Source: Owenia fusiformis
Lineage: Eukaryota
NCBI GenBank assembly: GCA_903813345.2
Contig: CAIIXF020000001.1
Location: forward strand, 21,390,001 to 21,454,000
Reading direction: 5' to 3'
DNA length: 64,000 nt
This document shows positions 3,301-42,300 of the stretch, piece by piece. Position numbers and translations under genes: made by a program. The notes beneath the pieces are model-generated. The model searched no databases. It was not told where the DNA came from and saw nothing but the letters and a program-made list of their open reading frames with translations. Within the stretch, counting starts at the first letter, position 1; the number at the start of each line of letters is the position of its first letter.

Positions 3301-6300
3301 GATAACCTTATATGGTGTGACGAAGGGTAACTTGTAGCATAGAGTTGCTTAATAGTTCCGGAAAATAGTTCATTTTTAACAGTAATTGAGAAGAATAGCA
3401 TTTTTTCTAATTGACTATTGTTGATACATTTGTGCTGCCATGAAGAACGTTCCTATGACTGTTTTTATCTTACCCTTGCAAGTTGTGACATATTGTCATA
3501 GTCTCCAAATTTTTGATAGACAGTGTTCGGTGTCTCCAACAAATGGCAGGTGGTGATATTTTGCGTGCTAACACCTTGTATATCTGTATACGTATTACCC
3601 AATGAATTTTCTGGGATACTAGATTTACCCTGATTTGAATACTGGGAGGGTATGTCATTATCAGAAGAGATAATCAAAGGGTGTTGGTTGTAGAATGACA
3701 TTTGATTTTAATTAAGCATTGAGATAAAAAGTACATACCTTTAATAATAAAAACATGGAACTTAATACTATTATATATATTCATTGCTATATACTACTAT
3801 AGTATATATTTAGCAGTTATGTCCCTATCATTGAATATATGCCTGAGGTCTGTCACCAATATAGCCCGAGCTTGCGAGGGTTATATTACGACAGACCGAA
3901 GGCATATATTCAATGATACTAACATAACTGTATTACATACTTTTATATCATAGCTACGTTATATCAATGACGCCACGTGTCTGTGTGCGAGTGAAATTAG
4001 GAAGAAAAGAAACATGACATCCCGATGACGTCATAAGATTGTCATGGTAAAAGGTTTGGCGGCTATACAGGAATATATAGCCGACCTTCAGCTCCATTGA
4101 CTTCAATACAAATGCTTCACTGGGTATGTAATACTGAAATATAAATGACTGAATCTGCTCAGATCTTTCAGTGCTGTGATATATAAGATTGGACATAAGT
4201 AGATTATCTTGCCTAAGCCACTACCCCATACCTATTGTTAGAATGGGGGGGAATACAGGGACTTGTCACATTATGTTTGACACAAGAAAGAAATAACTAT
4301 GTTTCAGAAAACAGATATCTTTCTAATAAAAATGTCCTTATAAATAGAAATGGAAAATTGGAAGGATTCTTAGCTAATACAATGTAGTTGATTAGGTATG
4401 AGGTTGTGCCAATGAGAACACATCCGTGGGTAGGTTAGAAGCTTTTAGCTATTGATAGATGTTATTCTGTGACACACCTCTCATCTTCATTTATATGCTA
4501 TTAAAGGCCATCAATTTAATTTGCGTAACAGTAAGTAGAGCAAAATATAGTTCTTGTTTTTGATAGCTGTAGAAAGTCAATTACAATAAGATATTTGTTC
4601 TTTCATTTTAGCTCAGCCTTTTTCTTAGCTCAATCTTTTTTCTCAAATTCACCTTTTAGTTTTTTAAAGTTTATTTATATTTCAAAAGCAAAGAAACACA
4701 TGTTCTAAAGTAACTATTTGGAAAGAAGAGAGCTTCAAGAGCCTTCTTGGAGTCCCAGAGTCTTCCCTTGTGCATCATGCTGGTTCTATTTCACCTTCAT
4801 AAAGGTAGAATTTAAACCCTTGATACACACGGGGGATAAGCAAAACGAGGACGAAGCCACGGACTGCGACTCGCGTAACCTTACACCGCAGCCCAGCGCC
4901 AAAATTGAGGGACATCCGGCAGTGCCTTCTGCTTCTTCCGACAAAATAGAGAAATCCAGGTATTTTAAATGCTATCGTAGTGTCTAATCGGTGACCAAAA
5001 TATTACTCTGTATCTACTGTTGGTCTGTAGATAATAAAATAAGCAGTTGTCCAGATCAAGCTAAAACAGTAGCAAAGTTCTGATTTTACCTGTAAAATAT
5101 GTGCATATTATTTAATTTACTATACATTTGAAAGGAGTTTGAACACGTTTCTGATATCTAAAGGTTAGTTGAGGCTCCGAGTATAATTCGTGAAAATGAT
5201 TTGATAAAAGAATGTGTTCATGAGGAGAAAATTAGATTCAAACTGCGCATTCATAGTGGACGCAGTCCAGTAAACAAAGCTATTTCAACAACGCAACACA
5301 GCCTCCATTGATATTCTAAGCAACGCAGTCCAGCCGCGAACACGAAATAAATAAGATAGTGTAAACTATATTCCTACGCTATTATTGTTTCAGGAAAAGA
5401 AAGTCAGCATCCAGATTATCATTCAAAGTTACGTTGATTAACATATATCTATTACCTGAATCAATGTCCCAAATTGCTATATTGTATCGTTTAAGACCTA
5501 GAAATATGGCAATTCAATAGCGTATTTGGCAGAACAGTCGAGCGCAAGATGACAACGTAATATGTTTATTACAAACCAATTTGTGGATAGGGTTAAATAT
5601 ATAGATAATTGGATAGTGGTGAGACTTTTTATAAGAAGTAGAAATGCGAAACAATTAACTTTTTGATGATGCAATAAAAGTTTTCTGCTGGGGAAGGGTA
5701 CATTAACTAGTATTTAAGATATCAGGAAAATATCAAATAATTGGAGAGTTGGTGAGTTATTGTAATTTTGGATGATCTTTCCAACAGTCCATCAATATTG
5801 CTAGCTACCATAAATTCATGATTTCAGCTGTATTTGACAGCTTGTATATATTTGCAGAATGGATTGAGACACGATGTACGTAGGTCTATTAAAATAGCCC
5901 TTTATATTCAATTTTGTCCAAAGTTGCTCCATTTCGGCCACACCTGTACACACATGTGCTATCTACCTTTGGCTGTGATTGCGTTCAGCTCCAGATATAA
6001 AGCAACACTGAGTCGCGGACTGCGTTGGGCAGATGGATGGACTGCGACTATCATAAATTCCAATTTTCTATGTAATTGTACGTTTTCCGCTTACCAAATA
6101 TCACACGAAGATGTAATTGTAACAACAGAACATGAATAATTATATTAATTCGATGTCATTTCTGATTCCTTTGTTTAAATCGGTATATTAGGGACAAATA
6201 TTGACAAAATTACATTTTTTGTGGCAGATTTCGAATTCATTTGTGTTCATGCTAAACTATTGGACAGCCGAGCACCAAGAATGCCATTGCAGGTGGAGTA

Positions 6301-9300: not shown

Positions 9301-12300
9301 TTAGAAGACTCAAATTAGATTCTCAATACAGTTTTGTAGCTTAGCTACTTTGATAGACATAAATCATGTAAGTGCTTAGACACTTATCCAAAATGCATTT
9401 TTCGAATAAATACTGATCACTTATGTTAAATAGCTAAAGTACAGCAATGAACTACATATTATGGATTAGAAATGAATTGTTTATGTAATGTTTTGGAATT
9501 TCGAATAATAAAGCAAAAATATATGATGTGGGCGGATGTTGCAAATATAACTTCCTTGTGTTATTAGTATACCGCCATGTATAATTTATTATAAGTAATA
9601 TCATAAATTGTTTATCAATTTTTCAAACAGAAACTGCAGATTTTTTATGTTCATCTTTTGTTTGATCCTTCAACTAAAAATATTGATATTAAAGATTACA
9701 TGATAGAAAACTGTCTCATATTGGTAATGAAAACACAAAATGAAATCCTGTATTAAGGGCTTAGGTATTATTATGTCACAGCTGTGAAGTGGTTACATAT
9801 ACAGGGTGGGCCAAAAAAACGCCACTTTTTTTACAAAATGCTATAACTTTTTTAATTTTTGATATTAAATCATAATTTGCATACCAAATGAAACTTGATG
9901 TTTTTATCTAGCCATTGATCATAAATTATATACTTTTACTTGAATAAAATATGTCACCAGCGACGTCTCACTTAAACATGTGGTGTGCCATGAGAAATAA
10001 GCATAATTTGCAAAATGTTCCTGAACTGTTACGGCCTGATGATCACCAAGCTAATAGCCCTGATGCAAACCCCAGTGAGTATAGGGTATGGGAAGGTCTC
10101 CAGGAGATTGTATGAAGGCACCCCATCTAGAAAATTGCTCATCTAAAGCTGGCAATTAAGATCGGTTGAAAAAAACTTCTAGTAAGCTAACATTTCATTG
10201 ATACCGCAATATCAGCAAGGCGACTAAAACTAAAAAATATATCATTAATTAGGGTGGCGGACCAATTGAACTCCCCTTTTAGATCAAATGTAATCCAAGT
10301 TGAAGGACTTGTTATTACATTATATTATTACAAAGAAGCCTTTGCACTATACAAATGCAAAATTGTAGGTTGGAAAATAAAAAAGTTGTAGTGTCTTGAA
10401 AAAAAAGTGGCGTTTTTTTGGCCCACCCTGTATAATTGTATCTACTGTTTTTATGACCAGAAATCAGCATCAGTATTACCATTTTACATCTGTAATAATT
10501 GTTACATATTTTGAATCAATAATACAATTTCTAGTAAGTAAAAACTTCTAGTAAGCTAACATTTCATTGATACCGCAATATCAGCAAGGCGACTAAAACT
10601 AAAAAATATATCATTAATTAGGGTGGCGGACCAATTGAACTCCCCTTTTAGATCAAATGTAATCCAAGTTGAGGGACTTATTATTACATTATATTATTAC
10701 AAAGAACCCTTTGCACTATACAAATGCAAAATTGTAGGTTGGAAAATAAAAAAGTTGTAGTGTCTTGAAAAAAAGTGGCGTTTTTTTGGCCCACCCTGTA
10801 TAATTGTATCTACTGTTTTTATGACCAGAAATCAGCATCAGTTTTACCATTTTACATCTGTAATAATTGTTACATATTTTGAATCAATAATACAATTTAC
10901 ATAATTAAATTCCAGAGTTGTTATTACAATAGAAAATATTATTAAATTGCTCCTTGTTATGTTATTGCAGAGTAGCATATACCACTTAAAAATGATGGGA
11001 ATTTTTGAAGTGTCTTTGTGGTATCCACACCCTCTTTATAAACATAATTAGTTTTTAAAGGTTGACAAGAATTTCAATGTTGAAGTGTTGGTTGCTGAAA
11101 ATTGAAGTTTTATGACTTGTGTATATATAAGCAGGGGTGTCTGAGAGAATTATTTTGTAACATATTCATTTATGTTCAGGGACACCATCTTTACAGAGAT
11201 AACTTTAATAACCAACTACTTCTGTTACCATGGTAATGTGAAATTGCAATAAGTTAGCATCCATGACATTTTGTAAGATGATGCCATATCATGTGTCTCT
11301 TACCAAACACAGTGTGTGGTAGTATTAGACTTGAGCCTCAGATTGCTTCATATGGCTGATGTCTCATCTATTGTTTAGTTTATTGTTATCATATTCAGGC
11401 TATTCATGATAAGTAATGTTTACTATTCATGAATCTATCCTGTCTGATCAATGATAATTTGACTCTTCCTTCTTATATTAATATGAATGGCCCATTCATA
11501 AAAGAATCCTCAGCTAGCTTTTCTATAAGGCATTTTTGTTCATGGTTCCAACTATCTTGTCAGTCATGTTTGGAACCGAGTTAGTCGTTCATATCTGCAT
11601 CCTTACTACCCATTTGTAGTTGCTTTTATGAATATTTTAACCATTTGCTTCAATATTAGCTGACCCAAAATACAACTTGAGCTTTTTAAAGAAATATTGA
11701 GCTTTTTAAGAAAATAGAGTGTTGCCTCCATTTTACAAGTTTACATTATGTCAGTTGTACCATTTGAGACTCTAGGCCTATATCTACAATTATAGTGCAA
11801 AACAAGGAAAATATTAGGAAACAAAACATTGTCCTCAGGAAAACAAACAAACATTTATAAAAACAACCAGGTTTAAAGGATAAAGATACAACACTTCGAA
11901 ACGAAAAAACAATGTACCATTTAATATATATGTATATGTACAGTGCTTTGGTGACTAAGGAGTTACAGGGCTGGGAACATACATGACTGTATATGGAAGG
12001 ATAGATGGTTGATATTCTGTCGTTTTGTTTTCATAGGATGGTTAGGGTCATTGTGGTTTACTAAAGGTCATGGTTTTCCACAATTTATTCCCAAATTTAG
12101 TCAGTCAATATTATTGACCATCTGTAGAGTCTGCAGATATTCCTTTATCTTTGCTGTTCTCAAACAAGTTCATTTTATGGTTATACGCTCCAGTGTTAGT
12201 CTGATCGAGTCACTGAACACCTCCTTGATATATCCTAATGTTACTGAATATGCCATCTTGGTGTGGGGTTCAAAGCAAGGCCATTAGATTGTTTAGGTTG

Positions 12301-15300
12301 GAATGACCTTACAATGAAAAACAAGTTATTTGGAACTTGAGGCATTGACTAGCGCCACTTCCCGGCACAGACAATACACATGGCAGTGAAACCAAGAAAA
12401 TAAACTCATGTCATAGCCATGTTGATTTTATTTTGGGAAACAATAGAAACTTGCATGTAAAAAAGCTGCAAAATGAAACTGCCTGGATATAGTTAGCACC
12501 ATGGGTTGAAAATAGTAAAAACATCAGCAATGAATCGGTAAGATTTTATACTTGTCTTTTTATTGGTCCCTGCATGCCAAATTCAGCCCACTTTTGCTGG
12601 TAGGTAGGTACCATGTTCTTGTTTCCAGGCATACCGTTTGACCACAGACTTATGAAGTGAGCATACTATCATTATGGAATTACTTTTTTTATACTCCAGG
12701 AAATGAACGTCAAAATTTTCCTTTTGACCATGCATGAGGAGTGAGTCACCCTTCTATCTTATCTTATATTCAGTAGCCAGTATTAGATATAGAGTATATT
12801 ATAGAGGGAGGGGGATGACTTACTCCTGTGGGAGCATGCCCGGGCCCCAGGGGTGGATCTGGGAACCAACAAGGGGGGGGGCAAATCTCATGTCAGAGAA
12901 AAAAACTTCTTCCTAAAACCCAAAAGTGAGCCCAACTTTTGAAATTTTGAGGCCTATTTTCTTCAAAATGTGGCCTGAAATTTTAAAATAAGGCCTTAGA
13001 GGGCCCAGTTATGACTTAAAAGGCCCACTTTTTGGGGCTTTAAGGCCTTTTTTGCTCTAAATTTTTTTGGGCCCTATTTTTTTCTGGGGGATATATCCAT
13101 TGAAAGTTTCATGAAAACTGCTGCCTATATTGTTAGTATGTATCTAATGTTTGAATTGAATTGTTTTCATTGATGGATGAATCAAAACGAAATTGTTGGA
13201 CCCCTTATATACATATAGCATGTAGCACGTATGCCTTCACTTTTCTTGAGTATAATATGTATTATATAATTATTTAACAGAGGTCAGTATCATTTATCTC
13301 TCAAGGCAAGATTTTTCTCAGTTTAACAGATGTTTTAGTTTTATCTGCTTTACTCTCTGGCAGATTTATTTGTACTAAGTTATACTTGATAGGGTTTTGA
13401 ATGAATAACATGACATAAGTGGCTTGGACAGTCCAGCTGGTTCCTAAGAAAGGTTATTCAGTGGTCAATGCCACTACTTTGATAAAAACTAAAGTGGTAA
13501 TGCAATCATGTAATCATGTGATGCATTGTTTATGAGATATGTATGGAATGATTGCTTAGAGATGTCCTGTCCATTTTGGAATGTCCCTTCTCTGCACAAT
13601 TGTTCTTTTAGTTTTGTTATTTTCTAAAATCAGATTACCAAATCAACTCTAAATGGAGTTTTACAATCAAGTTAAGTATTAATTTTCAGTAAGTTCAGTT
13701 TTTAGATAATAGTATTTTGCATGTTTAATAAACATGAAATATGGCTCTTGTTATATAAAGATTATCCTATATGAGGTTCAGGATATTGGGATTATCCCGA
13801 GGCAAATATAATATATTTGCCCGAGGGCCGCAGGTCCCGAGGGAAATATATTATATTGGCCAAGGGATAATCCCAATATCCTGAACCGACTATAGGATAA
13901 TATGTTTATCCCATACCAATCTTGGTCATCTGGTCCACATTGTTCAATCGTGGAAATATTTTAGAATATTTATGTCCAGTTTTGTTTTCTTGGCCGTGGG
14001 CGGATTTTCCTGTTCTCTCAAATATTCCCACATTTATTTTCTCGAATTTTTGATTGATTAAGTGGATGCTCTTTCCCTTTTTTAAACCATCACACAGAAT
14101 CCGATTGTCTGTGTTTTCTCCATTGTAGTTTACAGTCATTACGCGAACGTTACAAATTATGAACAAATATGCGAGCGGCGATTATGACGTAGCGGGCAGA
14201 TATACTATATCTGCCCGCGCGGAGCGGGACGTAAAGCTATATCTGCCCGCTGATGAAAATATAAGTTTTTACAAACCGGCTTTATGTACCCGTAACACGT
14301 CCAAGTATGGGATAAAGATATTTATCCTATGCCAAGTAGAGTTTAAGGGAGATAAGTTGGTAAGATATATCCCGTATCCTGATGTTGAGGTTTCCATATC
14401 CTGAACCTCCATATCTCCCGCCATATCTCCCGCTCCAGGGCATATCTTCCCGCTTCAAAAAAAAAAATTGAAAAAATTAAAAAAAAATTTGAATAAAAAT
14501 TGAAAAAAAGAAAAAATAGAAAAAAATTGAGGTCCCTACAGTCCCTCAGGTAGATATGCATATCTCCCTCTGGATAAACCTCATATCCAAAACTTCCCAG
14601 GATATAACCCTTATATATATATAACAAATGGCACTGGAAATATCCCTTCTAACTGGAAAAGCTTCTAGATTTACACGAAAAGTGTCTAACTGAAAAAGCC
14701 TTTATGTTTACACCAAAAGTGTCCCCTCTAACTGAAAAAGGAAAATCATGGTGAACTTGTTTTCTTATATCATATATCTTACCCTCCAGGTTATTTCCTC
14801 AAATATAAACAGAAGATGGTAAAATAAATAGGAGGTGGGGGTAGGGTAGGTAGTGAGTTTGCAACAAGCTCCTATTTCCTAAAAAAATAAATGAGAGTTT
14901 GGGAAACTTCAAGACAAATTGTATAGACTAGTGAGCATAGAAACTATTTCTTATTTGAAGATTGTGTTATCACAGAATAGTAGACAATTTTAAGATATAA
15001 GTGGTAATTTTATATGTTGTTATACATAATAAAACATCATTGGGACAGGCATAGAAGATAAATCTATTTGATTAGATTACTATTGCAACCTACTTTGGCC
15101 TGTTATAGTGTTATATTTGTGTCAGTGTTATATTTGTGTCACAGTTATATTTATATCATTGCAGTATCAAGGTGGGTAGGCATCAATCTATTTGATTAAA
15201 TGATTATTATCGCAGCCTCCTTACTCTGCCTGTTATTGTGTTATATTTGTGTCACCATTATACTGCCACTGCTGTATCGAAGTGGGTAGTGATGTGTGCT

Positions 15301-18300
15301 CGTAGAATTCAGCCCCGGAGAAAGAATGGCCAATATGGGATGATTAGTATTGTTACAGCTAAAATCACTTTCTTTCCCAAAATCATACACACATGCACAA
15401 GTTACAGTATTAGTCAATAAAATATCTAGTATGTATGGTATGGTATGGTATGGTATGGTATGGTATGGTATGGTATGGTATGGTATGGTATGGTATGGTA
15501 TGGTATGGTATGATGTTATATGGTTTCTGGTTAGGTATGGTATGATATGGTTTGGTGTGGTATATTTGGTATGTATTTCCAGGCTTGGTCATTCCACTAT
15601 TTTGGATGTTGACCTTTTTTAAGCAAATGTTTCATGAAAGCGTTATCTCCCTAAGTAGTGCCTGGATGAAAGATTTGCTGTGAACAATAAGATGATATAT
15701 TAATAATTATGAAATAAAAATAGAAGTGGTTGGCACACAAAACAAACAAACACAAAACAAACACACAAAATTAGACAGTGTAGAAGCCATATTGCTCAAT
15801 GCTCATACTATAGATACATTCTGATTTTAAATTATCAGAATCTTTCTTTATCTTAAACTGTGGATCTCACAATGACTTTAAGCTCCTGAGAGAGAACTTG
15901 AGATTAAGGAACAATTTCCATCTTGGCAGGTAGCTGGGTTCTCTGAATTTTAATCCCCTCATGTCTTGTCTAGGTATATTCTAGGCACTAGAGATTTGAA
16001 AAGAAGTTGAGCATTTCTGTTATCACTAAGAATTATAGTCCATTACTGTATTCATCTGACATGTGATCAGCTTATATTAATCGGGTCATAGATATTCATT
16101 TCCCTCAATTCGAATCCCATCTGATTAAATCTAATAGAAATGTAATAGGGCTGAAATTGTAGATACATCTGTTGCATTTATATTGAGTAAATAGGCGTCT
16201 GCTATTGTAAAACATTCACTAGATGGCAGCACCAGTAGTGTTTATCAGAAAGAACTGGACTTACACCCGAGATAACATACACATCAGAATATTACCTTAG
16301 TATCTCTTTGGATATGATTTAAAGATAGCATTTCATGTTTAAATGATTCACACATATGGATAAAATGGCTGTAAAAGATTGGAAAGGAAATATGCTTTTT
16401 AAAGGTAAGATTATGTATTTCAAGAAAATTATCCAACATATACATTCAGCCTGTGCTATAGGCCACAGATTGAGCTAGGCACGTATTGATTTGCCAGGCG
16501 GCTAAAGCTACATAACTGTTTGCTGTTCTAAGTTCACTGGCTATTACTATGTAAAACATCAACTGTGTGCACATACACTTTACAGCCAGGGATAAAAATT
16601 CAGTTTAAGTCTGGTATTGGTTTACCTGGCCAAGTTGTTGAATTCACCATGTAAATGTACTTGGTATTTTATCTGAATGTTTAAATAATATTAATGCTTT
16701 TGTGGTTTCTTAAGGGCACATGCTGTTATGCAGAACATTATTCTCACAGCGCTTTAATAATCAGTGTATGGAAATTATAGCATATATATATACAAATGTA
16801 TTATACTGTATTTGTTAATGGTCCCTAGATTTTTTTGCTATTTATATACCAGTATAGCACTGTAGTATTCAAATGCGCACCACATGTAAATCTCTTATAA
16901 ATTAATGATCATGATGACGACTTGTATGTTACAAAACAAGTGCCAATATATGCTAGATACATATGGCTGTAGATCCAGCATGTGAAATACTGGTATTCAT
17001 ATGTCTATTGATCGTGTAGCTAGGCACAACAAGTAGAATGATTCATGTGAATGTATTTAATCATGCCATTATAGAGAAAATCATTATAGAGTATATAGTA
17101 AAACTGTCGAGTAGAAAACTTCAAGAGAAAACTTAAGTTGAACACTTTTTATAGTTAACAAACTCAGTGACATGCTTTTTATGTGGTCAAGCAGAGCATT
17201 CGATAGCATGGCCCTTATATTTTAAAAGCACATTAATTTTGGGCATTAGCTATATACCTGTTTCTTCAATCGATTTGAACATTCATTTTCTCCTTGTCAA
17301 TCTCAAATCATGGACATAACGCTATATTTCTGAGTAGTACGCCACCACGGGAACAAGAGTTGAGCGAAGCAAAAAAGAGTGTTTAGGGGGGTCTGGGGGT
17401 TCTCCCCACGAATATTTTGAAATTTGGTTGTATTTGGAGCGAATTTGCAACCATCTGATAAGCCTGTGCATACCAGGCGCTACACCTGTCCAAATTGCAG
17501 AGGTGTTCACTTTACTTTTTGAGATTCACGCAGTAAATTCAGACAGTGTTTCAAAATGTTAACATAGCCTTCTATTCTAGTTTGATAATTCATGCATGCA
17601 TAAGAACAAATGAACTTAATTTTGGTAATTCCTGTCACTTGGAGAAAATATGCTTTTTGTGCTAAGTTAAAGATGTAAACCATATATGGAATGAGTTATA
17701 CAAGTATAAAGACCTGAAAATAATGTACTTCAATTAGGAAGCCATTAAAATTTCTGAACATGCGGATATCTCTCACAATTTATCGATTAGTTCTGTAAAA
17801 AGGTTCCTGTGACAACTATTGAATTGCATGGCATTAGATTGATCTATGTTAACAGTTAGGTATCTAAACCACACTCGCATTTGGCACATAAGGTGGTCAC
17901 CAAAATATTTGTTTTATTATATTATACACCAAAATCATAAATATATCCCAGGAGTAGTGACTATATATATATATACAGTGTATAGAGGTATCCACTGCTC
18001 TTAAGAATTTCTCATATTTGACTTACATGATTGGTAAATATCACCTCGTGAATATACTTCATTTTACATGACCTGGATTTAACCAATGATAAAGTAAGAA
18101 GCTTGATCATGATATGATAATTAAAAATGTTATTCACTTTTTCTGACCAGAAATCATTGATTGTAAAATGCACTGTGATATTATTATTATTGATATTATA
18201 CTGGTTTACAGTAATTTTTCATTTTATTTTGAAATTGATGAAACATTGCATTTCGGTAACCCGGTAATTGATTTCCAGTAACGGTAAATCTCAATTACCT

Positions 18301-21300
18301 GGAATTAATCGGTATTACACATTTTACTGTCAGTCTCTAAGTGACAAACATGTAAGGTGTATTAACCTGGCAAAATAAGTGTTATTCAAATTTTGTGTCA
18401 TAGCTGATAATTTGCCCTTAATGCCTATATTATTAAAATAAATTTGATCGGGGCAGACGATCAGTTTCATGTCATCTTGGCTTGAACTCTAGATTTTGAA
18501 CTGGGTGTCATGTTTGAATTTTCAAGAGGGTGCAGCACATCACTTCAGTGCTATGGATATCACTTGCCAGATTCAAACATGACACCAGATTCAATTTTAA
18601 AGCGAGTCTATACAGGTAATATAAGATGACACCATGTGTCTAATAAAATGCCATTGCATGTTGGTAATCTGTGGTATATACTGTTTTTCAAAAAGAACAC
18701 CAAAGAGAAAATTGCTAAAAATCATCAAACATCTATTATTAATAAAAGACAATCTTCAATAGTACCATGTACTAGCTCTCCAGTGTCATTCAATGTAGTA
18801 GATGACGTTTTTGTAGAAGAAGTATTTGTACTTGTAGAAGTACAAGTATTTGTATTTTTTTATTTAATCGAATGTGGGTGCACTCTCTCTTTTTGTTTTG
18901 CATTTCTAGTTCATATACAATTGTACATCTTAACCCTTGACCCTCCCACTCATATACCTAAATTTCAAGACATGTTTCACAAAGCACACTAAATCATTGA
19001 AAAATCATGAATAAAAATGAGTCACCAAAATCAAAATATCTTACTTGAATTTTGTACTGTATACGTTTCACCCAGAAAAAGCACTTGGATCTTATTTGAT
19101 GCCAGATAATCAAAATTGACCAACCAAACCAATATAGTGAAACCTGTATATTCAAACACCTCTCAATGTCAATACACGTACTTTTCTTGGTCTCAATGTC
19201 AATACACGTACTTTTCTTGGTCTCAATATCAATAGATGTACTTTTCTTGGTCTCAATGTCAATACATGTACTTTTCTTGGTCCCAATTTTGTTCACTTCC
19301 ATAGATTCACTTATTTAGAAAACCTTGAAATGTTAACATCTACATGTATAAATAGGAACACTTCTGGTCAATCCGAATGGCATTTGGATTCAACAGGTTC
19401 TACTGTACTTATTTACATTCAGACGCTCGTTACATCTCCCCTCTTACATACTAGAATATCTGTCAGAAAAATGCCATGGTATATGATGATGTTACTTTTA
19501 TTGTGATGATGTCATCCCAATTCATGTTATTGTTTATGACAGGTCGTTTGGAATAAATCTCTTTCCTTATTCCAACAAGATATATGGCATATTAAATCTC
19601 CTCTCTCAATTATCTGGAGAGCAATAAAATTATCATGTTCTGTACTGTAAATATTGATAGACTTGAAGGCTGTGATAAGTAATGTCTCTGCCTATGTGGG
19701 TTTCTAATAAGAATTAAAAATGTATATATTTCTGTTACAAGCAGTTACAAGGTTTGTTTAATAAGAAATTACACATCAGACGAAATCGTATGACAAGAAA
19801 TGATATGGTCCTTCGCCATATTCTTAAATTGAAACACTTTTTATGTTACCACCAATAGTGGTGTCATATTGTTATGGTTTCCAACTTTTTTTTGTGACAG
19901 GGGTTCATGGTCAGCGTTTGGAGTTCAGCATCTGTAACAAATGGGAGGTGGTGGCGAGGTTACAGTGCATGTTAATTGTTGTTAATGGTAGATGTTCACT
20001 GAAGAGAGATGTTTACACTAGACAGATCTGTTCATTTTAGAAATATATTCCTATTAGAGAAATAAGTACACTAGAGAGAGGAGCTTAACAGAGAAATGTA
20101 CAGGGTGGTCCAAAAAATGGGAAACGTATTTCAAGCATAACCCTCAATCTTGGCCTAAACTGGTCGATAGCGTCATTGATATGCTTTTGAAATAATGAAT
20201 GACACTTCTCAACAATTCTACCATTAGGGGATAAAATAGATATAAAGGATTAATGGTACACCAACTATGTTAGTTCTCCCCATTAGTGGTCCATCAGGTG
20301 ATCTGAGGGCCAGTGATTTCCTGATCTCATATTCGAATCATTTTGTTTTCCAAGAGATTGGAGTCCAAGCCATAGATCCCACAAGACAGTCAAATATTTA
20401 AAGGAGAGTGTGTATAGATTCTCCAATCTCCCCCTTATCACTGGCCCCCAGATCATTCGATGCCAACATCTGCGACTACCACATATGGGGAAAACTAACA
20501 ATTGGTATACCATGAACTCTTTACATCTATCCAGGACAGAATTGTTGAGAAGTGGAATTCGTTATTTCAAAAGCATATCAATGATGCTATTGACCAGTTT
20601 AGGCCAAGATTGAGGGTTATAATTGATCAAAATAGATGACATAATGAACATCTGTTTGTGGCGCCAAAAAACCTTGGTTTTTGCAAGTTTTTGAAAACCT
20701 GTTTTGAATAAAATGATATAATTTGTATTATGGACGCTGGTTGACATGTATTATAGTAAATTTGAATTTGAACTGATTGATCAAAAGGTATTCTTTATGA
20801 ATATGTTCTCCTGTGATATGTGTATAAATTACAAGTTTACTGTATAGCATTAGAATGATCTCATGTGTTATTTGCTGGGCATTTAGTTTTATCAAGGTGA
20901 CCTTAAATGCCTCATATACTTGACCTTTGCTTAAAGATATAATAGAGACATATGTAATAAATAAGTTCTTTAATGGTATAATATAACTAGCTGTGCATAA
21001 ATGTTCATCTCTTTTGGTTTATGACTAGTATTTTTTATAGGTTCTAGCCAAAACCCAGAATTTATTGTCATTCATCAGTATCATCTGATAAGCTGCAAAT
21101 GGGTGTCTTGCATTTAATTTTCAAGCTATACATGTATATGTATTGTAAGATGTCAGTTGCACCATTGAAACAACATGCCTGATATACCTCCCATATATGT
21201 ATGATTACAGTGATATTGAACTCAACAGATTCTTGATTATTAATATACCATTATATCCAAGTTTCACAAAGTAAACTTTTATAGTAATTTAGCAAGGCAA

Positions 21301-24300: not shown

Positions 24301-27300
24301 TTCATCTTTAATACCATTTTTAATGTCAAAGATGATATCTTCAACTTTTTTCTAAAATTTTGATTGTGTCCTCATATTTATAAAGTAAGTCCTGACTGGG
24401 ATCAGTTGATTATCTACTAGTTCGTGTATAAATGACATGATCTTCAATATCAAAATGGTCAAAATGATTACATTGAAGTTAAACAGTACATAAAATCATG
24501 ATTGACTTATCTCTAATCATGTTTAGTCATTTAAAGCTGATTCTCTTTCATTTCATTAACATAGTGGAAGATTTTGTGATTTTTATTTGTGCAACATTTT
24601 AGAATTTTCTCATTTTTTATTGTAGCATTTTAGAGGACACATCTAATTGCATTGAGGAGCGTTTGGTTTTGTAAAATACATGGCGGTGGTGCGCCTCAGA
24701 GATTACACTTCAGACATAGAGTCGCAGGTTCATACTTTGCACCATACACTTTATGCATTTGTATTTTGTTTATGAAATTGAGAGTTGGCCAAAGGTTGTG
24801 TTAGCTATCAGATAAGTGTAGAATGTTTTGCACTAGAGAACCTAGAACAGCTGTTTTGTTGATAGTTATTCCAACTGAATGTGTGTGTTAGGTTCTGTGT
24901 TGAGACAGGTATGTACAAGAAAAAAAATGAGTGCATGTATACTATATACTTATTATTACACTCGTTCTGTCCTGGTATATACTCATTTTGTTTTTGAGTA
25001 TACTCATTCTTTCACTCGATTTGTCCTGGTATGTGCAAAGTTTGTTTTAGTTGCATATACTTATTCTCACACACATTCTGTCCTGGTATTCATCCTTATA
25101 TTCATTCTGTTCTGGTATGCACTCATTTTGTTTTTGAGTACACTCAGTCTTTCACTCGATTTGTCCTGGTATGTGCAAAGTTTGTTTTAGTTGGATATAC
25201 TTATTTTTACACACATTCTGTCCTGGTATTCATCCTTATATTAATTCTGTCCTGGTATACACTCATTTTTTTGAGTACACCCAGTCTTTCATTCGATTTG
25301 TCCTGGTATGTGCAAAGTTTGTTTTAGTTTGATATACTTATTCTCACATACATGCTGTCCTGGTATTCATCCTTATATTCATGCTGCCCTGGTATTCATC
25401 CTTATATTCATGCTGCCCTGGTATTCATCCTTATATTCATTCTGTCCTGGTATGCACTCATTTTGTTTTTGAGTATACTTATTCTCACACTCAATCTGTC
25501 CTGGTATTTTCTCATTTTTGAGTATACTCATTCTTACACTCATTCCATTCTGGTGTGTACTTATTTTGTTTTGAGTACACTCATTCTGGATTAAAGAAAA
25601 GGTTGGAAAAAAGGTTGAAGCAAGACTACAATTTCATGAGTTCATTATTAACAACGGTCACACATTATGATTTGAAAGTGATAACATACATAGAAATCTT
25701 TGTCTTTGAAAATATAATGTCAATAGTACTATGAAATGCCAGATATTGCATGAGAGTCTTCATAACACAAGCTATAATCTAGTAATTATTGAGGATTATT
25801 TCATCACTTGTAAATGGATTAAAATCTTCCATAACTGCAGTTAGGCCTGTGCTAGTCATGTACTTCTCGTACATGCTAACCTCATACTTAAGACAATCTT
25901 GATAACATATTATCTGTGGGTGTCTAAGTCATGTATTGTATTGTGTTAAATATTATGTGGTGCAGTGCCAGTACTGAGTACCATTCAGACTTGTTATATA
26001 TGGTGATAATAGTGTTTTGCTGACCGACTTTGTCTCAGACTCCATCTCACTGATAGATCTCCACTGAAAATGAATTTTAGCTTTCCTGAAATTTATCACT
26101 CGTTGTCAGAGGGATGAACTAGTTAAGACAGCAATATGACTTTTTCTGTTTTTCATCTTTGAAGCAAACTTGGCCTTGTATTTTCACAATTATGTACATA
26201 TCTTAGCTTATGTTTTGGGTTATTTGCCAATCTATGCTTGTTGGTATATAAGCATAAATATATAATATTATGCATGAAACGCTGTGACCTTAAATGTAAT
26301 CTGTAAATTCATTTTGACATTGTAATATGTCGTAAATATGAAACTTAATATGCTTTTAAAGCCAAAACGTTCATCATATTACTAAACAGTGTTTAAGCTA
26401 TATACTCGACCAATGAATAAGAGTAGTGTTGTTTTAAGATAGAACTACACAATTTTTTTCTATTTAAGGCTTATTTTCTTGATAATTTGGGCCTACCTAA
26501 TCTGGGCCAACCCAAGGGGGCCCCTGCCCCCCCCCCCCCTCCAAGTTTTCTAGCCCTCTAATAGAAATCCGCCTTTCTACTATAGAATTTAAATAAAACC
26601 TCCACCATTGAACAACATTCGCAAATATTTTTAACCAATGTATACCATGAAAAATGTTGATGGAATAACATGTTACTCACAGACCTATGAGATATGTACA
26701 GGCAGAGTCCACAAATTTACCTTGTGTTAAATCTGTTTTTATTCTTTTAACTTTTAATATTTTCAAGATTATGTTTTGTATTAACAGCATAATAGAGATT
26801 TTTACCGAGGCCCTTCACAAGCACATTATTGTATGTTTTAAATGTGGAATAAATGTTTAAACTGTACAATACAGTATATAACAGATCAGCAATGTAGACC
26901 TCCCTAGATGGAGTTTTCATGTTAGATCTACGATTTGTATTTCTTACCAAATATACCAATTCACCTGTCTATTGTTACCATAAGCAAGCAATGTTTAGAC
27001 TGGATTGCTTATATATACATACTGACATTGGAGAAACACTTTGCAAATCTCAAATTGAAAAGCACCAGTCTACATCACACAAACCCAGGAAATGAGATAT
27101 TCACTATTTATTCACTTCATTGGTCCTTGTATATATTGGAAATATGCTGAAGACTGTGGCAAGGTTGTATATAGAAGTTCAGTTTATACCTTATAGCACT
27201 ATTCTTATAAACAATGCTTACTGGCACTAAACATCGTGATAAACTATGTCATCTCATTTCTTCTCAGTTGTGACACTTTATGACACAGTGAAACATTTCT

Positions 27301-33300: not shown

Positions 33301-36300
33301 AGACATAAGTTCCTAGTAAAGCTATTCATGGGTAAGATTATTAAAATTGTAAAAATGACAAATTAATTCATTGACTTTATTAAGTAATAACCTTGAAATT
33401 TGTTTTGTACGGTAGGTAGAATTCAAAATATAATGTAAACAAAGCTATAGTAGTTGTGATAAAAAATCAATATAAGTAGGAAATGTTTAGTTCATGCTAA
33501 AAGGAAATAATACTTACATATTTTGACATATTCTGTATGAAGCATAAACACTTTGAATTCTTGTTATTAAATGTAAGTACCTTTGCAATGAGTAGGAATG
33601 AACTTACCAATTTACCATACTTTCATGTTTCAACAATTTAATTGATTTTCAGAGATATGTCTAATAGACTGTATAAATATATTTGTGTTATACACTGTTT
33701 ATCAAAGGTACTGAGAGTGACTTTTGCAGTCAAATAAAAGAAATACATGTACATGTATACTTACTCCAGGGCTCTAGGTATATAGAGTGAGGGGATGGAT
33801 ATATATGTTTATCCCATACTTGGACGTGTTACAGGTACATAAAGCCGGTTTGTAAAAACTTATATTTTCATCAGCGGGCAGATATAGCTTTACGTCCCGC
33901 TCCGAGCGGGCAGATATAGTATATCTGCCCGCTACGTCATAATCTACGCTCGCATATTTGTTCATAATTTGTAACGTTCGCGTAATGACTGTAAACGACA
34001 ATGGGGAAAACACAGACAATCGGGATCTGTTTGATGGTTTAAAAAAGGGAAGGAACATCCACTTAATCAATCAAAAAATTCCAGAAAATAAATGTCGGAA
34101 TATTTGAGAGAACAGGAAAATCCGACCACAGCCAAGAAACGAAACTGGACATGAATATTCTAAAATATTTCCACGATTGAACAATGTGAACCAGATGACC
34201 AAGATTGGTATAGGATAAACATATTATCCTATAGTCGGTTCAGGATATTGGGATTATCCCTTGGCCAATATGATATATTTTCCCTCGGGACCTGCGGCCC
34301 TCGGGCAAATATATTATATTTGCCTCGGGATAATCCCAGTATCCTGAACCTCATATAGGATAATCTCTATATCTATCTAATTATCGTCACAAAGTCTGGG
34401 ACATAAAGCTATATCCATCCAGGACCATCCTCTTAAGCAGGTATTCTGAATCCATACCTCCTTCTTCCCCCTGCCATAACCAATTTGGAAGCGCCCGATT
34501 AAACTGAATCACGTGATCTAATTATGCGCAATGACTTATACATGATTTCTGTCGCAGCCAATCAGATTGCGAGTTCTTAATCGAGGAAATACTGACTGCT
34601 TATCGCAGGGGGTAAAAAGAAAGAATATATTCTGGATTTTGAAGCCCTGTGATCAGAGGATATTAAAAAATAGATTAGCGTTAATTCTTGTCATTCTTGT
34701 GTTTTCAGAAACAAATGCCTCAATGAGAAGCGGAGGAGAGAACAGGAGAACATCTATATAGAGGAGCTAGCAGAATTGATCTCGGCTAGCATCACTGAGA
34801 TGAACACATTCTCTGTTAAACCAGACAAGTGTGCCATCTTACAGGAAACTGTCAGTCAAATTCGTAGAATCAAAAATGAAGGTAAGAGAGAGGACTTTGT
34901 TATGTTGTATCAATTGTGTGATCTTTAATCTCACTGTTTACTAATTACGTTCAAGATGTAAATACTATTAAAGAGTGCCGATATTAGGATACAAAATAAT
35001 CAATTTATATGAACCATATCAAATGATTTTTCAATAATAACAGGTGATGTGTTTCACTGAAAAAATGCACGTCAAGATGTGATAGTTGCACATTTTTAGA
35101 GCTAATATGCGACTTATTTTTATATAGCTTAAACGCATGCGTGATTGAAAAGTAATTGAAATTGTTAAGTACATACCTGGTCAATATACTCTGTTCTATG
35201 ACTACATTGTAATTGTATACTTAGTAGCTCTCCTGAGTGTAAAAGCCTAGTATGTTATAGCATTGAATCATAAAGTGCTCTTTAAAAATCTTAAAGAACT
35301 ATTAGTCTATATTGGCAATGGTAATACCAGCTGTAAGTGGATTGTATTCAATGTCTACTGCATATGATAATAATATAGAATAAACATCTCAACAATTTAG
35401 GATTCTATAGTGTTATTGTCCCCTATATTCCATAAACTAACTCAGCTTGATTGTGTTGGCATTGCCAGATAATACAGGGAGACACAAAAAATGACAGCCA
35501 CCTTACGTTGCATAACTTATTTGTCTATTGACATATAGACTTGTTCCAAAAATTTCAGATGTGTAGCTCAAGTTGTTCAAATTTTATGAGTAGTCTATTT
35601 TATTGTAGACACACATGGATTTTACATGAGAAATGTCACTTGGCTTGTACTTTCAGGGAAATGATGTCCATTCAATTAAACACAAAATAATGTAGTTGTC
35701 ATTGATAGAATCATTATAACTTATTTCCAAAATCATGATATAAAAGCTGGGTGTCATTTTTTGTGTAAGATCCAGTTGTGCCAGCAAAGGAATAGATGAC
35801 ACATTTTGTAATGGTCATTTAATGTGCATCTAGATGAGCTAGTCATTTGAAACTTCTTGTTGAATTGCAAAATGGAGTGTAGTTTTAATTTGCCCAAAAA
35901 TTTGTCAGAATTTCTTCAGACAAAAAAGTTATGAAACATAATGTGGGTGGATGTCATTTTTTGTGCCAAGCGGTATACTGAGAAATATTTTAATATGGAA
36001 TAGATGGAAGATTGATAATTTTGCAGAGTGATGAATTTTTGTTGATTGTTGACTAATTATTATTTAGACATTAATATAAAAAACAGAATTGCATCCCCAA
36101 GATTATTTTTGGTAATTATGAAGTTCTTAAAGATTTAACTTTTAAACATCTTTTACTGTAATGCCTTGAATCAATAAACCATTACTATGCAACATTTTGT
36201 CTTACTTAGCTACATACAATTGGTAGCTATTTGAAACTTAAACAATGATAATAACACATTATTAACAGATCCAGGGTGATACATATATAATTCTTCATAA

Positions 36301-39300: not shown

Positions 39301-42300
39301 TGAATTTTAAATAACAATTATAACGACACTTAAATATATTATACCATCTACGTCATGCAATGTAAATCTATTATGCTTGGGTGGTGAAGATACAGAATTA
39401 AGATATATTGTAACGGGGTACATGTATTGTTATATCACTATTGTATCTTCATGTTTGCATACTACAAATAGATGAAATGTAGTTGTAACCACAGTTGTAA
39501 ACCTAGCACATGATTCATAACTGCCTGTAATAATCACAAAATTAAACCTCACTAAAAAGTTATTTTTGAATAATTTACAGATTTGTCTTTGAAACATGTA
39601 TGATGCTGTTATTTTACATGTATCAAATACTTGTAAATATCCGAATATTAAACAGAATAAGATAGAATTGAATGGAATGGAAAAGAAACTTATCTAATGT
39701 CTATCAAAGAAGTGTTCTCTAACATTAGGTGCTGTAAGGGGTGTATATCTATATGTTTGATAATACTGCATTTACACGTGTCCTCAGGAAACCCTCTAAA
39801 CCTTGAATGACCTTGCCTGGTGGTAAATAATCGGAGGAATAGCAGTTCATAGTTTAGCACCTTCCTAAAATTACTTATACATTGAAATATGAGAATCAAT
39901 CTAATTTGTTCTATTTTATCAGTTGTTCCATGAATATTGATCTGGTTGCGACTGTTTATATATATTTCAAATAATATCGGAGATATACTTGTAAGGATGT
40001 AATATCTCCTTCCAATTTGTATTCAGGAGGTTGTGGCACATGTTTTCTTGATTATGTGGTCAAAATATATATTTGGTATTTGCATGTAACGTGGTCATAC
40101 TATTATAGAATAATTACATTAATTAATGCTGACCTGAGCCATATGAATATTGAACCCTCAATTTATCCACGGTTCCATCATCCCTCAGGAGTCAATTTAC
40201 ATGGAGATATTGCATTACTTACTTGTCTGTTCATCTGTCTGTCTATTGTCTGTCCATTTGTCTGGCTGTCCATCTTTCAACAATTATGGTATGTTTTGAG
40301 ACCTCTGTTTATATGATTCCAGTCTTAAGTTATTTTTGGTGTTCATTTATATAAAAAAAGGGTCTTTTCAACTTTTTCATGTTAAATTTATTATTTCCAT
40401 TAATTTTGCCAGTTGTTTTCATTCATTGAGCCTGTTGTGAGAAATCCTAGTGAAACCCCTGTTCATAGTATCTATGTGATCATGACTCAAAAAGTATTCC
40501 CACAACAAAGTTTTTGGAAATCGTATAATTTCGACATGGAAAAGAAGCAGGTTAAGCAGTAAAAATGAATTGAGAACTTTGTTCATGAACATGAAGCCCC
40601 CTATGAAGCTTTCACACAAGACCATGTTGGCTCACCACTTGGCACCTTGCGAATGTGAATACTTTTGGGTAGACAGTGGTAGACGGGACTGGGATAGACA
40701 CACAATTTCAAAACAAATAGTTTTATAGCAAGATACCCCTCACACTTGTTGATAAAAAATGAATGCCCAAACGTATTCACATGGTGGCCAATGACTAGCC
40801 AAAACAGCCTAATGTAACAGCCACTTTACAAGGTAAATATGCATTGCTCAAAAGGATATTGAAAAACATGTATTATAGGAGTCCTAATAAACATGCAGCA
40901 CATATTGAAAAATAACTATTAATTTGATTATTGATATGTATGTGCAATATATATATGTATACATAACTATATTTAATATATCTGTTTCCACAATTATTGC
41001 CTTAGTGTCTCGTGTAGTTCAGGTCACTATTATTTACCATCATGTACTGTTATGCCAAGGCCTCACATACAAACAGAGGATAGAGTGAAATTGACCGCAA
41101 CACACCAGTTGGGTTATACATTATGTAACCTCGGTTCAAACACGGGCTACTAGGGTGAACCATTTGGAAATACCAAACAAATATTAAACATCACAAATAT
41201 CTATTGTTAAATTATTAATCATTCTGGGATGACTGCAGTTTTGATTTTTTATTGACTTGACTAGCACCAAATGTAACATCCCTTGTTGTATTTATCTGTA
41301 GAGAGTACTACCAAGTGTACAGCGAGCTAAATTATGTAAAATTATTTTTTAAAAATTGGGTATTGACATCTTGAGCAACAGTTATAATCAATGTGCAAAG
41401 TGGTACATTGAATGAAAATGGTAGATTGAATGAAAGTGGTAGAATTGAAGCAATACTGACAATTTTGGAAACCCTTTTACTGAAAATACTGAAACTGAAA
41501 ATTCAGGTAAAAGTATTATAAATAGATGTGCAATCCTGTATTGTTTCTGACCTGAAGAGCTATTCAAGTGATAGATAAGTCAAAGGATATTAAATCATTT
41601 TCATTATAAAGATACAAAACTTATATATCATTTAAAAGGTCTGGTGTAAGAATATTGAGAATATAAGGAAATAGTACAGATATATTATATCAGTTCATAT
41701 TGTGATGTCCTGTAAGAGCAGATGTATCACTACGGACATACTTGCAATTGTACTAATAAAATTTATGAGCAAACAATGCTTTTGTACAAGGGTTGAACAC
41801 CAACTCAAATATACAACTTTTTTTTATTTTGTTTTAAGAGCAATTATTTATTGAATAATGGCAAACTGGTTCAGATAAAATTTAGAAATGTTTAAATGGT
41901 GGTTAACCATGCCTCTAAATATATGCAGGTTGAAGACTAGTTACATACAGTGCAGATGTATCAGAAGGATATATAGGGGTTATGCACTGGGAGGTTTTGG
42001 ATACAGGGAATATCCCGAGGGATATACAATATATCTTCCCGAGGGACTGAAGGGACCGAGGGAAGATGTATTGTATATCCCAAGGGATATTCCATGTATA
42101 CAAACCGACCGTGCATAACTGGTGTATCTCATACGTGAGTGGGTTTAGGGTAGATATAACCTTTTCCAACTTTTTCAAATGACAAGATATTTATATTTAA
42201 CATTTTCGTAATATTCTTTTTGTTCAATACAATGAAATTGTAACATTTAAACTTAAAAAAATTAAATTTTAAAATTAAAAAATTAAAACTTTTGATATTT

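Follow-up and report, generated by a model that had tools for sequence, protein, structure and literature searches.

Strand-consistent tandem G·A oppositions in the terminal stem-loops of Helentron-like elements of Owenia fusiformis

Why would a long DNA palindrome keep the same tandem mismatches, on the same strand, in copy after copy? The question is raised by a 64,000-nucleotide (nt) stretch of the Owenia fusiformis genome (contig CAIIXF020000001.1, positions 21,390,001–21,454,000), here called the window, to which all coordinates below are relative. Several palindromes in the window carry GA on one arm facing GA on the other. A first, sequence-only reading took them for hairpins of three families under selection for a strand-specific folded intermediate. 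The analysis reveals that they are not independent families of stand-alone hairpins; each is the terminal stem-loop of one longer type of element, built like short derivatives of Helitron2 and Helentron. Stem-loops of rolling-circle transposons are known. The strand-consistent, non-random tandem G·A oppositions in such a stem are real, and apparently new.

Six copies of one element type

Copies were sought by self-comparison of the window and with nhmmer. Six were found, one of them a truncated copy added by nhmmer, which returned no others in the window. All share a common layout. A palindrome of 117–157 nt is followed after 0–4 nt by an inverted repeat of 11–39 nt (IR-L), a non-coding body with GC-clamped hairpins, and the partner repeat (IR-R). 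The elements are non-coding and measure ~325–577 bp.

Three full copies lie on the plus strand: F1 (3814–~4140, with its true right end beyond IR-R undefined), F2a (13753–14327, 575 nt, non-coding) and F3 (41979–42465). F2a and F3 align end to end. The fourth full copy, F2b (33797–34372, palindrome 34222–34365), has the opposite orientation, and its GA-carrying strand is the minus strand. F3b (approximately 50300–50850, minus strand) is old and decayed. It retains a palindrome at 50708–50832 and an IR-L-like motif at 50686–50695, and has lost the CpGs of its GA motifs. F4 (14340–14616, minus strand) is the truncated copy; its left arm and apex are kept, followed by T-rich filler and the GC-hairpin region, and its right arm and IR-L are deleted. 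F4 breaks just past the palindrome apex and sits tail to tail with F2a, ~15–30 bp apart.

F2a and F2b share 95.3% identity in a 577-column alignment. Homology between F2 and F3 spans the full length of the elements (nhmmer E 6e-19), and between F3 and F2a it stops at ~42467. F1 gives no nhmmer match to F2 or F3 at E ≤ 10, yet it has the same layout. The unalignable F1 thus stands as a family of its own, as first claimed, but the full-length homology of F2 and F3 leaves two sequence families, not three.

Tandem GA/GA sites in the stems

The GA/GA strings quoted in the sequence-only reading are all present. In the 117-nt F1 palindrome (3814–3930, plus strand), CCT-GA-GGTCTGTC faces GACAGACC-GA-AGG (GA at 3845–3846 with 3898–3899), and the apex reads CCC-GA-GC tt GC-GA-GGG (3868–3869 with 3876–3877). 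In the F2a palindrome (13761–13901, plus strand), (T)GA-GGTTCAGG faces CCTGAACC-GA(C) at 13773–4 with 13888–9, and CCC-GA-GGGCC gca GG(T)CCC-GA-GGG places 13823–4 opposite 13839–40. The F3 palindrome (41979–42119, plus strand) contains GG-GA-GGTTT with AAACC-GA-CC (41991–2 with 42107–8) and CCC-GA-GG-GA-CT gaa GG-GA-CC-GA-GGG, which holds two sites (42041–2 with 42058–9 and 42045–6 with 42054–5). Counted with Watson-Crick flanks, tandem GA/GA sites number two in F1, two in F2a and three in F3. F2 and F3 share one additional site, in which CCC-GA-GG faces CC-AA-GGG (GA 13799–800 opposite AA 13862–3 in F2a; GA 42017–8 opposite AA 42082–3 in F3).

The stems deviate from perfect pairing in other ways as well. 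The outer site of F2 carries an adjacent T·C, giving a 3 × 3 loop. The inner stem of F2 contains a bulged T, and the bulges in F2 and F3 are all T residues. GNA triloops are present as sequence, with GCA closed by C-G in F2 and GAA closed by T·G in F3; their structure is putative. A nearest-neighbour fold left several apical GA/GA sites open (the inner sites of F1 and F2a and the innermost site of F3), so that pairing at these sites is read from the sequence and is not predicted by the program.

The GA/GA contexts are mostly pyrimidine-GA-purine (Y-GA-R: C-GA-G, T-GA-G, C-GA-A). This is the setting in which tandem G·A pairs shear and are most stable. The arms of F1 are locally non-palindromic, and the only motif common to all sites is approximately Y-GA-R. 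A motif that short leaves a protein too little sequence to recognise specifically, which favours a structural reading. The sites are unchanged between F2a, F2b and the diverged F3, and the unalignable F1 has them again. They are thus family sequence and not random decay.

Two other readings were considered and rejected. CpG deamination cannot produce GA/GA from a perfect palindrome, which requires two transversions, and transitions are insufficient. Deamination does explain CC-AA-GGG and the decayed motifs of F3b and F4. The CpG inside CCGAGG motifs is kept in the young copies (F2a, F2b, F3) and lost in the old ones (F3b, F4). The GA dinucleotides might also have been linkers between small local hairpins in a cloverleaf. 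F2 contains a locally palindromic GGCAAATATA-A-TATATTTGCC, so a cloverleaf is possible there; F1 excludes it, and the minimum-energy fold is a long hairpin in every case.

Strand consistency and mismatch types

As the sequence-only reading stated, the GA/GA sites all lie on one strand within each element. The body is asymmetric, so strands can be compared between elements. Read along the GA strand, all six copies have the palindrome first and the body 3' of it. The host gene allows a second comparison. Twenty-four pieces of a 2080-residue Owenia fusiformis PAS-domain protein were mapped by tblastn to the plus strand between 261 and 63746. The window is thus a single animal gene, and all hairpin elements are intronic. 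Relative to this gene, three copies have the GA strand in sense and three in antisense orientation, which excludes host transcription as the reason for the strand preference.

Mismatches inherited with the elements are also biased in type. The control consisted of the 15 other inverted repeats of the window, whose 91 mismatches comprise 21 purine-purine, 25 pyrimidine-pyrimidine, 26 A·C and 19 G·T. On the GA strand, the inherited mismatches of F2a are eight purine-purine and one pyrimidine-pyrimidine (T·C), with no other type. Those of F3 are ten purine-purine, no pyrimidine-pyrimidine and one or two G·T. F2 and F3 together thus show 18 purine-purine oppositions versus a single pyrimidine-pyrimidine one. 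In F1, 11 of 58 oppositions on the GA strand are not Watson-Crick: four purine-purine (all in the two tandems), four pyrimidine-pyrimidine (one an apical T·T), two C·A and one G·T. Additional lineage-specific single mismatches are again purine-purine on the same strand. The mismatches that distinguish F2b from F2a arose after insertion and are C·A and A·C, the type expected of random transitions.

With shared sites counted once, the F2/F3 lineage contributes 14 events, 12 of them purine-purine (binomial P = 3e-6, p0 = 0.25); with F1 added, the count is 16 of 22 (P = 3.5e-6). The separate-event counts behind both tests are our own reading. Among adjacent mismatch pairs in the control repeats, GA/AG occurs in 1 of 32. 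A Poisson estimate made by hand from the control type frequencies (GA 7, AG 5, TC 5 and CT 3 of 91) and the counts in the elements predicts ~0.01–0.02 tandem GA/GA-type sites per element, compared with the 2, 2 and 3 observed. A chance origin of the GA/GA sites is rejected on three grounds, namely the controls, the binomial P values and the Poisson expectation.

Co-variation of the stem

The stem was examined for compensatory change in an alignment of F2a, F2b, F3 and F3b, four sequences of which two are nearly identical. Ten of the 45 predicted pairs stay paired via changes on both sides, and 95.4% of cells are paired. Shuffled alignments gave 5.2 ± 1.5 such two-sided pairs and reached ten in 1 of 500 trials. 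Sliding the partner by 1–3 columns left 0–2. These aligned sequences suggest that the stem is maintained by compensatory change, and the support they lend is supportive rather than strong. The GA/GA sites were left "unrepaired" while neighbouring pairs changed in concert.

Architecture of the elements

The palindrome is joined to the body in all six copies, whole in five and as left arm plus apex in F4. Homology between F2a and F2b begins at the palindrome and extends 420 bp past it. A short repeat lies within 0–4 nt of the palindrome in all five untruncated copies (F1, F2a, F2b, F3 and F3b), and its inverted partner is found at the far end in the four copies that are legible there (F1, F2a, F2b and F3). 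The two repeats match at 11/11 positions in F1, 12/12 in F2 and 36/39 in F3. Beyond the palindrome, a conserved tail of ~8 nt is found in F1, F2a, F2b, F3 and F3b. The body between the repeats contains one or two GC-clamped hairpins, which are homologous in F2 and F3 and show no strand asymmetry.

In F1, IR-L (GTATTACATAC, 3930–3940, plus strand) overlaps the palindrome by one base and is the perfect reverse complement of IR-R (GTATGTAATAC, 4124–4134, plus strand). The GC-clamped body hairpin (CGGCTATA...TATAGCCG) occupies 4051–4088 on the same strand. Downstream, at 4201–4235, a terminal-like motif, AGATTATC, precedes an IR-L-like motif, TACCCCATAC, by ~20 nt, and the palindrome expected between the two is missing. 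This motif pair may be a relic that lost its palindrome.

In F2a, IR-L (TTTATCCCATAC, 13905–13916) is the reverse complement of IR-R (GTATGGGATAAA, 14305–14316), and the GC-clamped hairpins at 14191–14251 fold with -21.2 versus -20.2 kcal/mol on the two strands. In F3, the 39-nt IR-L (42123–42161) is a 92% inverted match to IR-R (42427–42465), and the GC-clamped hairpins homologous to those of F2 lie at 42330–42405. All of these features are given on the plus strand. A tandem array with periods of 27, 53, 76 and 156 (42460–43214, plus strand) begins exactly at the end of F3, and its unit opens with the last bases of the F3 terminal repeat. By analogy with the satellite-like arrays of oyster HINEs, the array may have grown out of the F3 end.

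Comparison with Helitron2/Helentron and other systems

The sequence-only reading compared the hairpins with folded integron attC sites or IS200/IS605 end hairpins. A better match is the stem-loop of elements of the Helitron2/Helentron type (HLE2). Comparisons with published systems draw here on portions of the cited papers. Canonical HLE2 elements have terminal inverted repeats of 12–16 nt, a stem-loop after the right repeat and T-T insertion, and in a "reverse" form the stem-loop is placed 5' instead (PMC11417382). HINEs combine subterminal inverted repeats (subTIRs) of 12–15 bp with a 3' palindrome of 5–10 bp (PMC4067079), and the oyster Cg_HINEs are similar to HINE/DINE-1 (PMC7492417). Helitron2 carries hairpins at both termini, and those at the 5' end of FoHeli have GAA loops (PMC5148889).

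The elements share with HLE2, HINE and DINE-1 a short inverted repeat at either end, one of the two directly flanked on its outer side by a stem-loop, short non-coding derivatives, associated low-complexity or tandem repeats, and, as in the FoHeli hairpins, GNA-type loops. Their inverted repeats fall in the range of ~11–18 nt expected of HLE2, except that the 36/39 repeat of F3 is longer than usual, and the stem-loop lies just outside one repeat at the element end. A/T-rich low-complexity sequence occurs inside the bodies of F3 and F4. HLE2 elements insert between T and T without duplicating the target site; left flanks here end in T in five of six copies, but these lie inside TA-rich sequence. 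Among the differences, the array adjoining F3 is outside the repeat pair, whereas HLE2 repeats lie between repeats or modules. Tandem G·A oppositions are conserved here, and the portions of the HLE2 and HINE literature consulted contain no mention of them. The elements have the build of HLE2 derivatives and very likely function in the same way; they are not assigned as members.

Several other assignments were rejected. Canonical Helitrons (HLE1) have a 5'-TC, a 3'-CTRR, a 16–20 nt hairpin 10–12 nt from the 3' end and A-T insertion; the ends of the two full F2 copies are neither TC...CTRR nor its complement, and the GC hairpins lie ~75–135 nt from the element end. The Helraiser transposase cleaves single-stranded DNA (ssDNA), and the 3' hairpin of Helraiser is a terminator (PMC4778049). 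Helraiser is comparable in that its hairpin, too, lies close to one element end; in this rolling-circle transposon it acts on a single strand as a signal for termination (PMC4778049). Helraiser differs in its 19-bp palindrome 11 nt from a CTAG end, its 5'-TC and its A-T insertion, and such termini are absent here. A stand-alone DDE miniature inverted-repeat transposable element (MITE), for example of Tc1/mariner type, is rejected by the body-attached palindrome in six of six copies, by F2 homology reaching 420 bp past it and by the lack of a consistent flanking duplication.

Membership among integron attC sites or IS200/IS605 is also rejected, since the elements sit in an animal intron and a Pfam search of the window's open reading frames (ORFs; 6 + 38) found no integrase or TnpA genes. 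The relation is one of analogy only. IS200/IS605 end hairpins are imperfect palindromes in which one folded strand becomes the substrate by virtue of its unpaired or extrahelical bases and similar features. The same holds for attC sites (PMC2727003, PMC5027507, PMC6393395). Both systems differ from the present one in being bacterial and much shorter, in using a tyrosine recombinase or a Y1 HUH enzyme, and in carrying extrahelical bases and bulges, not tandem G·A.

An endogenous viral element with a parvovirus-like terminal hairpin, which would adjoin NS/Rep and capsid genes, is rejected because the elements are only 325–577 bp, non-coding and without Pfam matches; the same Pfam search found no viral genes in the window. 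Minute virus of mice nonetheless offers a likeness. The ~120-nt terminal hairpin of this eukaryotic, HUH-dependent replicon has a conserved mismatch of a GA doublet with a GAA triplet that breaks palindrome symmetry (PMC1185569). There, one asymmetric bubble serves as a spacer in duplex form, whereas the stems described here have several symmetric 2 × 2 sites. GA facing GA between C-G pairs, together with C-GCA-G and GAA loops, is also found in model oligonucleotides and human satellite III (PMC8163305, PMC13037366, PMC3201870, PMC11014236), which are biophysical models or satellite repeats, not transposon stem marks. A full-text search of open-access papers returned no report of sheared G·A pairs as a conserved feature of transposon hairpins, which is weak evidence of absence.

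A proposed strand-specific folded intermediate

The favoured proposal, which is built on the sequence features above, is that one strand would fold as ssDNA during transposition and that sheared tandem G·A pairs would stabilise and mark that strand. We judge it evenly poised between right and wrong. As is assumed for elements of this kind, it would be mobilised as a single DNA strand on which a fusion of HUH Rep nuclease and helicase acts. The GA-carrying strand, exposed as ssDNA, would fold into a stem of 55–70 bp, in which the 5'-GA/5'-GA sites would form sheared tandem G·A pairs that keep the stem continuous. On the complementary strand, the same positions would be weak T·C/C·T oppositions. 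The G·A sites, the bulged T and the GNA-type loops would then be irregular marks on the GA-strand hairpin, and the outcome would be a structural label of strand and end, for example a termination or recognition signal. Hairpins of HUH transposons are general recognition features, and HUH Rep enzymes act on ssDNA (PMC10288648).

Tandem GA-AG in DNA is reported to owe an unusual stability to sheared stacking, which GA-AA shows as well, and TT, CT, TC and CC are classed as "open" pairs (PMC8163305). Compared with shuffled sequences, each of the three palindromes has a far more favourable long-hairpin fold, with z from -11 to -14 (F1, z = -11). In the DNA folds, the GA strand is better than its complement in four of four pairs: -36.9 versus -36.0 kcal/mol in F1, -53.4 versus -51.0 in F2a, -48.0 versus -42.4 in F3, and -23.5 versus -16.9 in a fourth folded pair. 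The advantage is only 0.9–6.6 kcal/mol.

A more tentative extension, which we consider doubtful, is that the sheared G·A pairs, bulged T and GNA loops would form a strand-identity code on the giant terminal hairpin of a Helentron-like rolling-circle transposon. The extruded strand would be readable from the sequence; here it would be the one with the stem-loop 5' and the body 3', the reverse of how Helentrons are conventionally drawn, and the stem of more than 55 bp would fold on one strand while the duplex resists cruciform extrusion.

The idea of a strand-specific folded intermediate, already put forward by the sequence-only reading, gains from the restriction of GA sites to one strand, the purine bias and the co-variation of the stem. 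It loses from the folding energies. Each GA/GA loop comes out as destabilising in the model, at +1.1 to +1.6 kcal/mol, and only 0.3–0.6 kcal/mol better than TC/TC. Loop terms that differ by so little make nearest-neighbour energies indecisive on strand preference. The fold model thus fails to reflect the stability reported for tandem GA and cannot settle the strand question. In a fold with our own script, the F2b complement was slightly better than the GA strand (-46.2 versus -45.8 kcal/mol).

Further points weigh on the same side. The sample is six copies from one window and two sequence families, and F2 and F3 have their GA sites in common through homology, which leaves few independent events. 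Co-variation in a palindrome could come from arm-to-arm copying instead of selection. The GA strand of F1 also contains a C-rich 3 × 3 loop and C·A oppositions. The innermost site of F3 is G-GA-C, a poor setting for shearing, and its outer site (G-GA-G with C-GA-C) is likewise outside Y-GA-R. The stem-loop, at 117–157 nt, is about ten times the size of the 5–10 bp HINE palindromes (PMC4067079). On the GA strand, the two full F2 copies have different flanks, T|...|T in F2a and G|...|A in F2b. A Pfam search of 44 window ORFs (6 + 38) gave no relevant matches and no Rep/helicase or other transposase. Finally, the canonical HLE2 orientation, with the stem-loop 3', would make the GA strand the minus strand, not the conventional mobile strand. 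By this analogy, the elements are predicted either to be of the "reverse" HLE2 type or to form the functional hairpin on the other strand.

Alternative explanations

The G·A oppositions might instead be symmetry-breaking marks read in duplex DNA. A protein, either Rep-like and bound to head-to-tail iterons or a host factor, would tell arms or strands apart, and no folded strand would be needed. The arrangement of the motif lends itself to such a reader, in that C-C-G-A-G-G occurs in direct orientation four to six times, 16–26 nt apart, inside an otherwise two-fold symmetric palindrome, with motif starts spaced 24, 16 and 24 nt in F2 and 24, 17 and 24 nt in F3. Precedents exist in pMV158-type origins, where RepB binds direct repeats beside the nick hairpin (PMC10288648), and in minute virus of mice, where the GA/GAA mismatch acts once copied to duplex, with origin activity confined to the doublet side (PMC1185569). 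The outer sites, however, hold only a half-motif per arm (T-GA-GGT, ACC-GA-C), and the inner F1 site, CCC-GA-GC/GC-GA-GGG, reduces what is common to all sites to about four bases plus flank complementarity. A dimeric reader of CC..GG would be indifferent to GA versus TC, and the extra lineage-specific purine-purine mismatches would go unexplained. Duplex reading is unlikely.

The mismatches might also be a frozen accident, having arisen a few times in master copies and been inherited passively. The elements would then be ordinary foldback or MITE-like elements, possibly TA-targeting, and the G·A oppositions would have no function. The F2 and F3 sites are indeed shared by descent, and the old copies F3b and F4 lose the motif CpG with no constraint visible. 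The terminal motifs are CAGTTATG-like, and TA stands just outside the conserved 8–9 nt tail (YWTAR plus 3–4 nt) in five of six left flanks. Such ends and the flanking TA presumably bear a loose resemblance to Tc1/mariner ends. Yet each site requires two adjacent transversions, and the number of sites per element far exceeds the hand estimate given above (2–3 seen versus ~0.01–0.02). Every GA site stayed while ten stem pairs changed on both sides, mismatches that arose later, in single lineages, are likewise purine-purine on the GA strand, and the unalignable F1 has the same feature in a Y-GA-R setting. The palindrome is, in addition, body-attached in all six copies, if only by left arm and apex in F4. 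A frozen accident is decidedly unlikely.

The transcribed GA strand might fold as RNA into a long hairpin, for instance the precursor of a small RNA, stabilised by sheared G·A and G·U pairs where the antisense would have U·C. All copies are intronic in an expressed-looking gene, tandem G·A in a CGAG setting is stable in RNA too, and Rfam returned sub-threshold matches to microRNA precursors, for example MIR2630 (53.9 bits, gathering threshold 144) and mir-944 (47.5, 100). This reading is highly improbable, as these scores are far under threshold (Rfam gave 0 matches at the gathering threshold over the whole window), MIR2630, the one family for which both strands were compared, scores similarly on the two (53.9 versus 51.6 bits), as a generic hairpin would, the GA strand is as often antisense as sense to the host gene, the window contains no tRNA genes or other promoter-bearing features, and an RNA function leaves the terminal repeats and spread of a DNA element unexplained.

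Genomic setting

The window has a G+C content of 34% and strong CpG depletion, with an observed/expected ratio of 0.38 for CpG and 1.02 for GpC. Long open frames are scarce. A 551-residue frame at 56485–58140 is 100% identical to part of the 2080-residue PAS-domain protein. The product of the host gene (261–63746, plus strand) is a Q-rich PAS-domain protein resembling a nuclear-receptor coactivator, and LxxLL-type motifs are visible in the translation. Its first intron, of ~34 kb, houses F1, F2a, F4 and F2b. A long C-rich tract lies within an intron at 26515–26545.

Other repeats are present at 24944–25587, 55265–55756, 10171–10898 and 15429–15563. They comprise arrays with periods of ~140 and ~145 nt, a 360-bp tandem duplication (98.6% identity) and a (GTATG)n microsatellite. 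Long inverted-repeat pairs are found at 49328–49566 with 50157–50393, at 53951–54139 with 54452–54640, and at 20131–20290 with 20478–20626. At 160–240 bp and 81–90% identity, these three pairs hint at further transposons bounded by long terminal repeats; the pair listed first overlaps the tail of F3b.

Implications

In the portions of the literature consulted, no experimental test was found of how Helentron/Helitron2 elements use their stem-loop or of which strand is mobile; the experiments described there concern one canonical Helitron (PMC4778049). If purine-purine oppositions mark the functional strand, the question becomes testable with oligonucleotides and a partner enzyme. The G·A pattern also provides a practical signature with which to find and orient such non-coding elements in invertebrate genomes. 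If the proposal of a strand marked by sheared G·A pairs is true, a eukaryotic case would be added to the folded single-strand recognition of integrons, IS200/IS605 and parvoviruses.

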